In this document: positions 29,821-33,218 of the stretch, piece after piece
How the letters are laid out: every line of letters starts with the position of its first letter
Numbering within the stretch: the stretch's first letter is position 1
Notes under the pieces: model-generated
What the model was told of the DNA's origin: nothing
The model's database searches: none
The model's input: the letters and a program-made list of their open reading frames with translations, nothing else
Virus record (IMG/VR): IMGVR_UViG_3300005611_000007
Coordinates: 1-64,000 of that record
Origin: a virus
Taxonomy: Duplodnaviria; Caudoviricetes
Length of the DNA: 64,000 bases
Direction: 5' to 3' (one strand)
Program-made: the position numbers and the translations under genes

Positions 29821-30331
29821 AAAAAATATGCTTTCCTATTCTAATTAATACCTTTTTATTTTTGCTCCATTTAGGTACGACATAATCCGCATGATAAAAT
29901 CTAGAACCTCTTGTGAAGTCTTCTACATTAAAGTGTAGTAATGTATCTGCTATATTAATAGCTTTATACCAAGTTTGTAAATCTTTTGGTGTATCTGATT
30001 TACCGTCACAATACCAAGAAAATTGACACTTATATTTTACTATTTTGTTGTTTATCTTTATTGCCTGATATACAACGTCGCAGATGTTATTAGGGAAATC
30101 TTTGTCTTTTACACGATTTAGAGTTACGAGACCAATAGCATATTGACCAATGATTTCTTCTCCTCTAGCTTCAAAGTATATGTTTTTAGCTAAACAGTTC
30201 AGACTATCTTTATCTACTTCGTGACTGTCAGCATTACCCGGCAATGTTGCCATAGATACAACAATAAGAATTAAGTAGACAAAACAAAAAATGATAAACT
30301 TTGCGATTCCCTCTTCGGAGAATTTAAACAA
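29813..30331 (-). CDS. SleB-family cell wall hydrolase with N-terminal TM/signal segment
   Basis: CLAKNIYFEARGE, VTLNRV...FPNNICDVVYQ, CQFSWYCDG and IGKHIFY motifs. Confidence 0.9.
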   Translation of the reverse strand: MFKFSEEGIAKFIIFCFVYLILIVVSMATLPGNADSHEVDKDSLNCLAKNIYFEARGEEIIGQYAIGLVTLNRVKDKDFPNNICDVVYQAIKINNKIVKYKCQFSWYCDGKSDTPKDLQTWYKAINIADTLLHFNVEDFTRGSRFYHADYVVPKWSKNKKVLIRIGKHIFYE

Positions 30332-30360
30332 TGTTATATCCTTTGATTGTTATAAGTGAT

Positions 30361-30690
30361 TGGGCCCGTTATATGACAGGGTGGAACCCATACCCCGTGA
30401 CTACAAGTCGATTAAGCCGCTAGGCGGATATCCTCGAAGTGATTGTCATTTGCAACATTAAAGTTAGCATTTATAGTTTTGGTCCGATACGCTGGTACCA
30501 TGGCGTCTACCTCGATTTGATCTTTACTACGTCAGTCGAACCTAATATCACCCCCCGCATAAGCATACCACAACAAACTCTTTCGTGTCTAGCAAGGTCT
30601 CATTACTAGAGACGGTGATATGCTTATGGTGGAGGTGACGGGTACTGCCCCCGTGTCCTGAACGTTTATTCTATCTCCTCTCAGACGGTA
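30361..30690 (-). ncRNA. ssrA: Two-piece (circularly permuted) tmRNA, alphaproteobacterial type
   Basis: On the minus strand the acceptor piece ends GACACGGGGGCAGTACCCGTCACCTCCACCA (3' end at 30627). A self-pairing intervening segment (TAAGCATATCAC...GTGGTATGCTTA) follows, then the coding piece starts GGGGGTGA (~30555). Tag frame (ANFNV)ANDNHFEDIRLAA* at 30412-30468; TATAAATA upstream at 30698-30705. Outer ends approximate. Confidence 0.92.
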
Positions 30691-30830
30691 GATTTAATAT
30701 TTATATTATTCATCTCTAGACTCTTGACATAATCAAATTCATCTGCAAGCCGGTCCAGATATTCTTCGTATTCCTCACGAATCTTAGGATATCGAAACGC
30801 TTCTTCATACAACTCAATAAGTTCAAACAT
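30681..30830 (-). CDS. Small hypothetical early protein (49 aa)
   Basis: MFELIELYEEAFRYPKIREEYEEYLDRLADEFDYVKSLE..., directly behind the promoter at 30861-30889. Confidence 0.55.
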   Translation of the reverse strand: MFELIELYEEAFRYPKIREEYEEYLDRLADEFDYVKSLEMNNINIKSTV

Positions 30831-30860
30831 CACATTCACTCACTGTTTCATCATTTTTAT

Positions 30861-30889
30861 ATAATACAACAGAAATGAATTAATGTCAA
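30861..30889 (-). promoter_or_regulatory. Sigma70-type early promoter, class A-like leader
   Basis: TTGACA-17-TATTAT, then ataaaaATGATGAAAC. Confidence 0.8.
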
Positions 30890-31039: not shown

Positions 31040-31135
31040 TGGTACGCCCACCAGGATTCGAACCTGGACCGCTCCCTAATCTGGGGACCATATGCCGGAT
31101 ATAAGCCGGGTGTTCTACCGTTAAACTATGGGCGC
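31040..31135 (-). tRNA. Atypical tRNA, anticodon UAU (Ile), with long variable arm
   Basis: GCGCCCA/TGGGCGT acceptor stem plus ACCA; D-arm; CCGG-CTTATAT-CCGG anticodon arm; ~26-nt variable region; CCAGG-TTCGAAT-CCTGG T-arm. Confidence 0.75.
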
Positions 31136-31140
31136 ATATT

Positions 31141-31217
31141 TGGCGATCTCGGCAGGACTCGAACCTGCAACCTAGAGCTTAGAAGGCTCTTGCTCTATCC
31201 AATTGAGCTACGAGACC
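31141..31217 (-). tRNA. tRNA-Arg(UCU)
   Basis: GGTCTCG...AGAGC-CTTCTAA-GCTCT...GGTTCGAGTCC...GCCA; canonical cloverleaf. Confidence 0.95.
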
Positions 31218-31302
31218 AATTAACAGTTCCAACACAATTTCGAAATTGCGTATGCAAAGGGTAAAAATGATAACAAAACTAATATTACCATATACCAATT
31301 AA

Positions 31303-31446
31303 TCAAGGCAATACTCTCTTTACGACTACATGTCCCATCTCAAATGGTAGAGTTACCATATCATAAGCAATACCAATAGGTGTCAATGGTGTTACAGCAC
31401 AAGCTGAAACCAAAAGACCAAGACTGATAACGATTACCTTTTTCAT
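31303..31446 (-). CDS. Small lipoprotein (47 aa)
   Basis: MKKVIVISLGLLVSAC lipobox; start overlaps the purS stop (ATGA). Confidence 0.6.
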   Translation of the reverse strand: MKKVIVISLGLLVSACAVTPLTPIGIAYDMVTLPFEMGHVVVKRVLP

Positions 31447-31664
31447 AGTTCCTCAATCACATAATTTTCCATTACTTCATTATATACAGACTTAGCAATG
31501 TCGTCAACTAAATTTTCATCACATTCAATATGGATAGTCTTACCGATTCTAACATTTTCAACCATATCATATCCCATAGATCGTAAAGCATTTGCTACTG
31601 CATCGCCTTGCATATCTTTGATACCGGGGCGAAGAGTTGTGGTGATCCTATATTTCTTTATCAT
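31443..31664 (-). CDS. purS: Phosphoribosylformylglycinamidine synthase subunit PurS
   Basis: LRPGIKDMQGDAV..AL..MGY..VENVRIGK.I...N.VMENY pattern. Confidence 0.85.
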   Translation of the reverse strand: MIKKYRITTTLRPGIKDMQGDAVANALRSMGYDMVENVRIGKTIHIECDENLVDDIAKSVYNEVMENYVIEEL

Positions 31665-31962
31665 TTAGTTTTTCTCTAACCCAGTTAATCTTATAGTCAG
31701 TGGACCACTCGCTAAGATAAGCATTGTCTTTGTCGAACAGATCCAACATTTCTTCTTCAGTGACAAGAGTGCTGTCTACAATATATTCGCCCATATATTT
31801 TTGAGAAAACTCTTCACATTCTTCCATACTCACTGTATCTTTTGCCCATTCTTCCGGCCAACAAGGTTCATCAGGATTCAATTTCTGCAAATCATCTTTA
31901 TGCATCACATAACGCATACGATGAGATGAAATACAGGTTACGACAACATAATCTTTACTCAT
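31648..31962 (-). CDS. Hypothetical protein
   Basis: Packed ORF; VTCISSHRMRYV...EEFSQKYMGE motif familiar from phages. Confidence 0.6.
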   Translation of the reverse strand: MSKDYVVVTCISSHRMRYVMHKDDLQKLNPDEPCWPEEWAKDTVSMEECEEFSQKYMGEYIVDSTLVTEEEMLDLFDKDNAYLSEWSTDYKINWVREKLNDKEI

Positions 31963-32004
31963 TTAATAATCCATTCCTAACCAGTCTGTTTCTTCTGGCA
32001 TCAT

Positions 32005-32457
32005 TTAAACATCTTTCTTCTCCACCATTTCACCGTTACGAACAACGTAGTGTTTAACTTCACACATACTTGACTTAATATAAGCACGACCTCCGTCTAT
32101 CATATTGCCGTTCTCAAACCGTTTATAATCATGGCGATGTGCGCTGTACTGTAGATTGCCATCACCATCTTCAACAAGCCCAAACTCTACAGATTCAATT
32201 CGATCTGCATTGGTAATCATAATTTGTGGCTTTTGTGTTACTCGTGTATCAACCATATTGTAATATAATCCAAAGTAATGGTTACCAAACTCAGGATGTG
32301 GAGTCTCTCTGTAAAAGATATCCATTGCCCATGCCTCATAGCCCAGAGCACTTGTACACACATAGGTAACAGGAACACCATCTTTCTTAGTATAGTGTTC
32401 ACAAATCTTGTCAGTATCAAATAGTGGTTCGTGTTTAATCATCTTCTCCTCACTCAT
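32005..32457 (-). CDS. Hypothetical protein
   Basis: Packed ORF; HPEFGNHYFG and YSAHRHDY...IDGGRAY motifs. Confidence 0.65.
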   Translation of the reverse strand: MSEEKMIKHEPLFDTDKICEHYTKKDGVPVTYVCTSALGYEAWAMDIFYRETPHPEFGNHYFGLYYNMVDTRVTQKPQIMITNADRIESVEFGLVEDGDGNLQYSAHRHDYKRFENGNMIDGGRAYIKSSMCEVKHYVVRNGEMVEKKDV

Positions 32458-32665
32458 CTACTACCCACGCATAATTGGTTGTAATCCAGTCCTCTAGGCA
32501 GTCTTCAAACGACCAGTTTTTGTCCACTTCTTCTTTACCAAACTTTTTACACATCTTCTCATACCACCAAGGATAGTATTCTTTTCTGATATCATCCTCT
32601 GATACTGTTACAATAGACGTTCCTTCTCCTGGGTATGCCAGTTCATCATAAGAAAAATATCTCAT
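32450..32665 (-). CDS. Hypothetical protein
   Basis: Overlapping start/stop with neighbours. Confidence 0.6.
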   Translation of the reverse strand: MRYFSYDELAYPGEGTSIVTVSEDDIRKEYYPWWYEKMCKKFGKEEVDKNWSFEDCLEDWITTNYAWVVDE

Positions 32666-33051
32666 CCTCGCCTCTTTCCAGTGGTTGGATCATTAGCGTC
32701 TTCTTTAGATAGTACCTGTAGACCACCTTTGTTATACGCTTGACCGACAACATATTGAGAACTATACATCAGTTTTGTCTCTCTGTCAACTGATTTATTC
32801 GTTTGAATCGGTACAATTTTGTTACTGAGAGGAATTTGGTCGGGGATGCTGGATTCGAACCAACGACCTGACGCTCCCAAAGCGCCCGCTCTACCAGACT
32901 GAGCCAATCCCCGTTTATCTGCATGAACACCCATCTTACGAAGCCATTTATCATGTTCGATATCGGCTTGTAATTGACGTTTGGTCTTTTTAGATTTACG
33001 TTTACGAGTGGATGTTGTTGTCATCCACGGTCCCACAAGATGCATACTCAT
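32662..33051 (-). CDS. Hypothetical basic protein whose reading frame runs through tRNA-Pro
   Basis: GGAG RBS upstream; MSMHLVGPWMTT...EHDKWLRKMGV and QAYNKGGLQVL motifs flank the tRNA; stop overlaps the next ATG. Confidence 0.7.
   Translation of the reverse strand: MSMHLVGPWMTTTSTRKRKSKKTKRQLQADIEHDKWLRKMGVHADKRGLAQSGRAGALGASGRWFESSIPDQIPLSNKIVPIQTNKSVDRETKLMYSSQYVVGQAYNKGGLQVLSKEDANDPTTGKRRG
32837..32913 (-). tRNA. tRNA-Pro(UGG), nested in a CDS
   Basis: CGGGGATTGGCTCAGTCTGGTAGAGCGGGCGC-TTTGGGA-GCGTCAGGTCGTTGGTTCGAATCCAGCATCCCCGACCA; C1:G72 and A73 as in bacterial tRNA-Pro. Confidence 0.92.
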
Positions 33052-33065
33052 ATCATCTCCAAAAA

Positions 33066-33139
33066 TGGTGCTCCCACACAGAATCGAACTGCGAATTGAT
33101 GATTACAAATCAACTGTTATACCGTTTAACTATAGGAGC
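33066..33139 (-). tRNA. tRNA-Thr(UGU)
   Basis: GCTCCTA/TGGGAGC acceptor stem, TTTGTAA loop, TTCGA T-loop, encoded CCA. Confidence 0.88.
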
Positions 33140-33143
33140 GTAT

Positions 33144-33218
33144 TGGCTCCTGGAGAGGGATTCGAACCCCCGACCGGGCGGTTAACAGCCGCCAGCTCTA
33201 CCACTGAGCTATCCAGGA
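33144..33218 (-). tRNA. tRNA-Asn(GUU)
   Basis: TCCTGGA/TCCAGGA stem, GGCGG-CTGTTAA-CCGCC anticodon arm, GCCA end. Confidence 0.95.

Follow-up and report, generated by a model that had tools for sequence, protein, structure and literature searches.

A phage-borne two-piece alpha-type tmRNA gene with two in-frame resume-like sites and a conserved structured spacer

We describe a complete phage-borne, circularly permuted (two-piece) ssrA gene of the alpha type, situated on the minus strand at about 30359-30692 of the window, i.e. the whole 64,000-nt stretch of DNA analysed here. Read directly in the sequence, its elements follow the permuted order, with the CCA end of the acceptor piece at 30627, then a 71-nt spacer and then G1 of the coding piece at 30555. 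We consider it probable that the gene yields a functional tmRNA, which resumes translation at GCU 30466-30468 and appends an extended tag. The spacer is the most strongly conserved part of the gene among divergent phages and forms a structured element of its own.

Gene identity and genomic setting

Searches with Rfam cmscan returned, on the minus strand, the tmRNA_permuted model RF04321 at 30412-30692 (111.3 bits; gathering score 47) and the alpha_tmRNA model RF01849 at 30359-30741 (100.9 bits; gathering score 50). Both matches were full length and untruncated (model positions 1-213 of 213 and 1-355 of 355, correspondingly), and a repeat of the run on the whole record gave the same tmRNA match. 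The covariance-model check proposed with an earlier, sequence-only reading of this DNA thus came out in favour of the gene, above the gathering score of both families. ARAGORN, the other program proposed there, made no tmRNA call in the window at either the default or a lowered threshold; it does call tmRNAs in the sister lineages L117, L050 and L251, and its failure at the window gene is treated here as a detector miss.

The elements that the sequence-only reading had named for a permuted ssrA, i.e. the G3:U70 pair, the T loop, the encoded CCA and the hairpin spacer, were all found on the minus strand by Rfam and by direct reading (Table 1). GGGGGUG and CACCUCC pair into a 7-bp acceptor stem with G3:U70, and together with the discriminator A and the encoded CCA they provide the alanine identity elements. 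The P2 helix joining the two pieces contains few non-canonical pairs in the covariance-model alignment. Its duplex architecture recurs in divergent sister lineages, the strands of which are 31-47% identical to those of the window, and this recurrence points to selection on the mature RNA; the duplex energies were clearly above those of shuffled controls in some sister lineages only. Furthermore, the T-arm/acceptor motif was detected by a motif scan in at least 119 IMG/VR viral contigs and in at least 120 genome records, almost all of them from Alphaproteobacteria.

Table 1. Features of the tmRNA locus and copies of its spacer; coordinates refer to the window unless a contig is named
Feature	Coordinates	Strand	Description
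Acceptor piece	30627..30692	minus	P2 5' strands, T arm (GGCAGUAC loop), CACCUCC, discriminator A, CCA
Intervening segment (spacer), 71 nt	30556..30626	minus	long hairpin
Coding piece	30359..30555	minus	GGGGGUG (G1 = 30555), D-loop analogue, P2 3' strands
PK1	about 30484-30506	minus	within coding piece, followed by single-stranded leader, tag frame and 3' pseudoknot
Tag frame, 18 codons	30412..30468	minus	ANFNVANDNHFEDIRLAA + UAA stop (30412-30414), C-terminal LAA
Site 1 GCU	30466..30468	minus	offset 87 from G1; context ACUAUAAAU, U-5 at 30473, A-4 at 30472
Site 2 GCA	30451..30453	minus	offset 102; context UUUAAUGUU, A-5/U-4; starts ANDNHFEDIRLAA core
3'-terminal pseudoknot region	30359..30397	minus	aligned to alpha_tmRNA 3' end
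TATAAATA box (T4-late-type / -10-like)	30698..30705	minus	5-6 nt before first paired base of acceptor piece
Strong sigma70-like promoter	30861..30889	minus	TTGACA, 17 nt, TATTAT (11/12); upstream of small ORF and tmRNA, 170 nt upstream
Putative 52-aa ORF	30681..30839	minus	3' end overlaps tmRNA start
Five tRNA genes	31040..33218	minus	Ile-UAU, Arg-UCU, Pro-UGG, Thr-UGU, Asn-GUU; about 350 nt upstream of tmRNA
Spacer copies	L117:178-249; L281:1826-1897; L268:52-193; L273:392-526		phage/metagenome contigs

The gene could instead be a passenger, that is, a host-derived ssrA copy playing no part in ribosome rescue, or a decoy that inhibits trans-translation of the host, as the tag-less tmRNA of mycobacteriophage DS6A inhibits host tmRNA (PMC11915505); the absence of SmpB from the contig would agree with either. 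We regard this as very improbable in view of the intact functional elements and full-length Rfam match, the recurrence of the P2 architecture over many divergent phage lineages, a tag frame that is open with a C-terminal LAA in all lineages, and the presence of the tmRNA region in RNA libraries.

The source record is linear, 126,920 bp long and estimated to be 70% complete, with a GC content of about 36%; the window represents its first 64 kb. Its genes include those for T4-type baseplate wedge proteins and for a ribonucleotide reductase, and its gp6-like protein is 41% identical to that of the OM43 phage Melnitz, 39% to that of HTVC008M (Pelagibacter), 37% to that of Cr30 (Caulobacter) and 36% to that of Mosig (Pelagibacter). 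No nucleotide-level relatives were found among 50,697 phage records, the sole match being a 44-nt stretch of tRNA-Pro. The phage is an uncultured T4-like myophage of salt-marsh, estuarine or marine water, distantly akin to Melnitz and the pelagimyophages. A search of the 127-kb contig, itself about 70% complete, gave no SmpB gene, and it is fair to infer from this that the phage tmRNA depends on SmpB of the host.

Two-piece tmRNAs of phages are an already known kind of gene. Melnitz has a two-piece alpha-type ssrA (Buchholz et al. 2022, PMC9004378), permuted tmRNAs occur in 17 of 47 Melnitz-related contigs, 53 two-piece tmRNAs, mostly aquatic, were reported from a phage genome database (PMC9004378), and the 2025 tmRNA database lists 79 phage tmRNAs (PMC11915505). 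As in Melnitz and pelagimyophage-like contigs, an alpha-type permuted ssrA is here carried by a T4-like aquatic myophage, with tRNA genes on the same contig and no phage SmpB. Unlike in the Melnitz group, the window gives no nucleotide match, the promoter of its tmRNA gene lacks a -35 element, and there is no match to the glutamine riboswitch reported for Melnitz (Rfam, tmRNA 3' domain, E up to 1); moreover, its 18-codon tag frame has an internal second ANDN and its spacer is a conserved structured module. The permuted form had been called characteristic of Alphaproteobacteria, but it does not fix the host, as Melnitz with its alpha-type tmRNA infects OM43 (PMC9004378).

The order of acceptor piece, spacer and coding piece is that of Caulobacter ssrA (RF01849; Keiler, Shapiro and Williams 2000, as far as it is described in PMC9004378). 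Shared with alphaproteobacterial two-piece tmRNAs are G3:U70, the GGCAGUAC T loop, CCA, PK1, the 3' pseudoknot, the AUAAAU context followed by GCN and the ANDN...LAA tag. The window gene differs from that of Caulobacter by its location in a lytic-type phage, by the likely five-residue N-terminal extension of the tag and by a spacer that is strongly conserved among phages.

The surroundings of the gene are mosaic. Between the upstream ORF and the end of PK1, with acceptor piece, spacer and P2 included, lineage L272 shows an identity of at least 98% with the window. At the PK1/leader boundary (about 30480) the likeness breaks off sharply, a sign of a recombination junction, and leader, tag, 3' pseudoknot and downstream gene all differ beyond it. 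A further boundary was observed at about 30725, upstream of which the flank is replaced in L246 and L248 and is therefore not kept in all window-type copies. Recombination seems to have a hotspot at the tmRNA gene. It should be added that the tRNA-Ile (UAU) gene (31040-31135, minus strand) is 96 nt long according to ARAGORN, about 20 nt above a normal tRNA, which an insertion or intron may explain, and that a 129-aa ORF (32662-33051, minus strand) reads through the tRNA-Pro gene (32837-32913), its protein being 85% conserved in L241 and L250.

Promoter context and RNA-library evidence

The gene had been placed behind a late promoter by the sequence-only reading. An exact TATAAATA box does stand at a suitable distance, and two structural genes carry the same box about 30-40 nt before their start codons; late-only expression of the tmRNA is possible. 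Against this, the window contains the word 12 times, which is no enrichment over the 9.9 copies expected, and most sister lineages have a full sigma70-type promoter at the homologous spot (TTGACN, 17 nt, then TATAAA, TAATAT, TATATA or TAGAAT), in which the box serves as the -10 element. Its position is common to L259, L262, L268, L272 and L273, most of which have a -35 element too, and the window type has kept the perfect TATAAATA and lost just the -35 element, with GTCAAG at that position (2/6). Contigs from RNA libraries reach 30807-30824, i.e. upstream of the box and downstream of the strong sigma70-like promoter listed in Table 1. The assignment of the box as a late promoter is partly supported. 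The ssrA of Melnitz was reported behind an early promoter (PMC9004378).

In fourteen metatranscriptome runs from salt-marsh and marine samples of several studies, 26-51% of the words sampled from an 801-nt query were present. In the four runs examined the spacer was bridged by contigs on the locus (X1, 30388-30824; X2, 30317-30807; X3, 30391-30679), and a contig in X9 ran on into the coding piece of a sister lineage. Such bridging is compatible with a single precursor transcript, the contigs being of a kind that shows no ends and may derive from contaminating DNA. Contig ends near 30388-30391 in two runs were considered as the 3' end of the tmRNA and dismissed, as X2 reads through.

Resume codon and encoded tag

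The tag frame reads GCU AAC UUU AAU GUU GCA AAU GAC AAU ... GCG GCU UAA. The two in-frame resume-like sites pointed out by the sequence-only reading, starting ANFNV... (30468) and ANDNHFEDIRLAA (30453), do share one frame to the stop at 30412-30414. Resumption of translation is most likely at site 1, GCU 30466-30468, and the appended peptide is likely A-ANFNVANDNHFEDIRLAA, in which a five-residue N-terminal extension would precede the canonical ANDN...LAA core; the extended tag, suggested earlier, is hence the favoured reading.

This preference rests on the homologous position of site 1 and on its U-5/A-4 context. In the alignments to both Rfam models, consensus context and resume codon fall on site 1, where ACUAUAAAU with A at -4 directly precedes GCU, and the frame closes with the hydrophobic A-A end (LAA, then UAA) of such tags. 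The unambiguous resume codon of L272, GCC (tag ANDNVASKEYALAA, ANDNV...), aligns column for column with GCU of the window, and the tags of L117 (ANDNVAYEDYALAA), L050 (ANDNIAPMALAA) and L251 (ANDNFVASEEYALAA) begin with ANDN at the same column, in agreement with the tags called by ARAGORN. Compared with L117, the window has an identical ACUAUAAAU context, matches at 15 of the first 18 tag bases, and differs by a change of codon 3 from GAU to UUU and by a 12-nt in-frame insertion after the common GUU-GCA.

The two sites were further compared with a set of 158 unique alpha-type tmRNAs from elsewhere, of which 71 are viral and 87 bacterial; the resume positions in this set are themselves inferred. 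Offsets from G1 in this set range between 62 and 97 (n=158), so that site 1 at 87 falls inside the range, and site 2 at 102 falls outside it, sitting 15 nt past the normal range. A at -4 is present in 150 of the 158, and U-5 together with A-4 in 116; site 1 has both bases and site 2 has neither (A-5/U-4). The few surveyed cases with U at -4 were mis-parses of the AANDN type, and after their correction essentially none of the 158 remained. Encoded tags were 9-15 residues long with two exceptions, compared with 18 residues from site 1 and 13 from site 2.

Studies of E. coli tmRNA showed that the five bases before the resume codon set the frame, with A86 (-4) as the main determinant, that A86U and A86C abolish activity and that U85A shifts the frame (PMC2481249). 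The site 2 context corresponds to the U85A + A86U double mutant; alpha-type tmRNA with its SmpB may not follow these rules to the letter.

Resumption at site 2 (GCA 30451-30453) would produce the 13-residue tag ANDNHFEDIRLAA and turn the first 15 nt (GCU AAC UUU AAU GUU) into an untranslated relic that lengthens the leader. This tag has canonical length and composition, much like other phage tags. Position 3 after site 1 has drifted from the near-universal D to F, as expected of a codon that is not read (F at this position is unique among roughly 200 tags surveyed), and E. coli tolerates changes of leader length upstream of the UAGUC element (PMC2481249). We nevertheless judge site 2 an unlikely start: A-5/U-4 is the combination inactive in E. 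coli, U at -4 and an offset of 102 lie outside what was seen in the survey, the perfect ACUAUAAAU context shared with L117 would have to be ignored, and comparable extensions in other lineages are all in frame.

Such extensions between context and NDN core measure 3, 6, 12, 15 and 15 nt and are stop-free throughout. They occur in L105 (ART-ASNDN...), L112 (GMLK-ASNDN...), L106 (AKYE-ASNDN...), L059, L273, L005 and L046 (VA-xNDN...) and in the AANDN class. Their lengths fit translation starting directly after the context. This test is no more than suggestive, given that the frame-blind PWM scan was made noisy by the 3' strand of PK1, which mimics the resume context; for this reason the scan itself was set aside as a discriminator. 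Local folding of leader and tag (z = 0.4) did not tell the sites apart either.

Mixed starts, with both sites in use or with resumption at GUU 30454-30456 after the fashion of lineages having GUC after UAAAU, would give tags of differing length. A Val codon following the UAAAU context is apparently used in L113, L045, L059 and L273, and the two GC(N) codons of the window can pair together in a weak local hairpin. We give this reading very little weight, as GUU too has U at -4 (context CUUUAAU), dual resume points are without precedent and site 1 alone fits the conserved determinant.

We return to resumption at site 1 and to the fate of the tag. The site 2 core is a textbook 13-residue alpha tag (cf. 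ANDNFAIEDMRLAA in L037), so that the second ANDN has clearly been maintained by selection; the encoded tag of Caulobacter, ANDNFAEEFAVAA, has 13 residues as well. Judged from the sequence, the five extra residues would be a tolerated N-terminal linker that probably leaves proteolytic targeting unaltered: the ANDN...LAA core keeps its canonical 13-residue length to the C terminus, which makes a neutral extension more likely, and the D-to-F drift in the first copy fits this as well. Altered binding of the adaptor SspB, as had been proposed, finds no support in a 13-residue core that is unchanged to the C terminus. A comparable arrangement occurs in L131, an alphaproteobacterial MAG (JBKDKX010000002.1), the tag of which, ANDNVAFVAANDNAVVAVRAAA, has a second in-frame ANDN after the canonical site at offset 84; unlike the window, it is bacterial, has 22 residues and has kept D at position 3 of the first copy.

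Two side observations were made among the surveyed lineages. GUC (Val) in place of GCN directly follows a UAAAU-type context in L113, L045, L011, L063, L059, L273, L005 and L046, which suggests Val resume codons (VNDN..., VAANDN...) in several phage alpha-type tmRNAs. In the coding piece of L010, three tandem repeats of about 23 nt (GGATTGGGAATTTTCTCGATC) lie between PK1 and the tag, at offsets of about 60-130, so that the tag begins as far out as offset 136-148, approximately.

The spacer RNA and its implications

The spacers of bacterial permuted tmRNAs are variable and are generally taken as discarded sequence. In contrast, the 71-nt spacer of the window is 91-96% identical across four lineages, with identities to the other three of only 34-57% in the P2, PK1, tag and 3' regions that flank it in the window, and of only 32-59% in neighbouring proteins. 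With motif scans the spacer core was located in 16 viral loci and in 24 loci from metagenomes; among the latter, L263 is a chance 20-mer match inside a protein-coding gene. A loops-only scan added three further viral loci with the spacer. These loci represent at least ten tmRNA lineages with differing tags. Among 185,579 bacterial and archaeal species, no genome contained the exact 29-mer or the loops-only pattern. No Rfam family corresponds to the spacer, which gave only generic hairpin or partial tmRNA matches, and in the phage's own genome there was no second copy of it and no excess of antisense targets over shuffled controls.

Spacer and acceptor stem together fold with -46 kcal/mol (z = -7.5). 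The consensus structure of the spacer consists of a 13-bp outer stem and a 3+8-bp inner stem, with two invariant loops, the apical UGAGACC and the 12-nt internal AAAGAGUUUGUU. When L281 is counted in, compensatory changes are seen at 7 of 24 pairs and 98.3% of cells are paired, values reached by 0 of 500 shuffles. L268 and L273 contain two tandem spacer units. L006 and L071 have only the outer stem in common with the others, their interior being different, and the interior thus behaves like an exchangeable insert within a shared processing stem.

Two other explanations of the spacer were tried. A promoter inside it (TAGACA, 18 nt, TGgTATGCT, ending 6 nt before G1) was weakened by L281 and L283, in which the -10 region is swapped by compensatory stem changes, and a protein-coding cargo was rejected, since the only frame is one of 7 codons starting with GUG and is unconserved in L281. 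Intervening sequences of tmRNAs are known to hold cargo occasionally, for instance a tRNA-Ala in a permuted tmRNA spacer (PMC11915505), and the excised spacer of the window is similar in holding a conserved, functional-looking element, which in this case is a non-coding hairpin of about 70 nt and not a small ORF, an AbiF-antitoxin-like RNA or a tRNA.

Tentatively, and with more doubt than confidence, we propose that processing of the precursor would release the spacer as a phage small RNA of about 70 nt, the invariant loops of which bind a specific protein or RNA partner. It could act, for example, as a decoy against an RNA-targeting defence of the host or as a regulator, and the tmRNA gene would then double as an expression and processing cassette. 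Tandem doubling in two lineages would represent an increase in dosage. Repeat expansion is known to let a phage escape ToxIN abortive infection, of which such doubling would be reminiscent. A role of the phage tmRNA itself as a backup against RNA-cleaving host defences, as the sequence-only reading had envisaged, is not supported by what is found at the locus.

The elements present suggest the following course of events. One precursor is probably transcribed, comprising acceptor piece, 71-nt hairpin spacer and coding piece, and RNase P together with 3'-end trimming would convert it into two RNAs that stay joined through the acceptor stem and the P2 helix. The tmRNA, having G3:U70 and A73, would be charged with alanine and would work with host SmpB; translation would resume most likely at site 1, with A-ANFNVANDNHFEDIRLAA appended to the nascent protein. 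The extension of the tag would have arisen in the lineage of the window by the change of D3 to F and the 12-nt in-frame insertion, and it probably leaves proteolytic targeting as it was.

Two-piece tmRNAs of phages are known, yet have been without functional study, and the present locus offers a natural test of the choice of resume codon, as a perfect canonical start of the tag comes 15 nt after a perfect upstream determinant. The question it poses is what defines the start in alpha-type tmRNA, the position with its context or the sequence of the tag. The extended tag is a modest curiosity, and the conserved spacer RNA is the part most deserving attention: a supposedly discarded spacer is the best-conserved part of the tmRNA gene across divergent phages, and its covarying stems, invariant loops and tandem duplication point to an unclassified phage RNA motif inside the precursor of a stable RNA, which supports the idea that spacers of permuted tmRNAs are sites for cargo.
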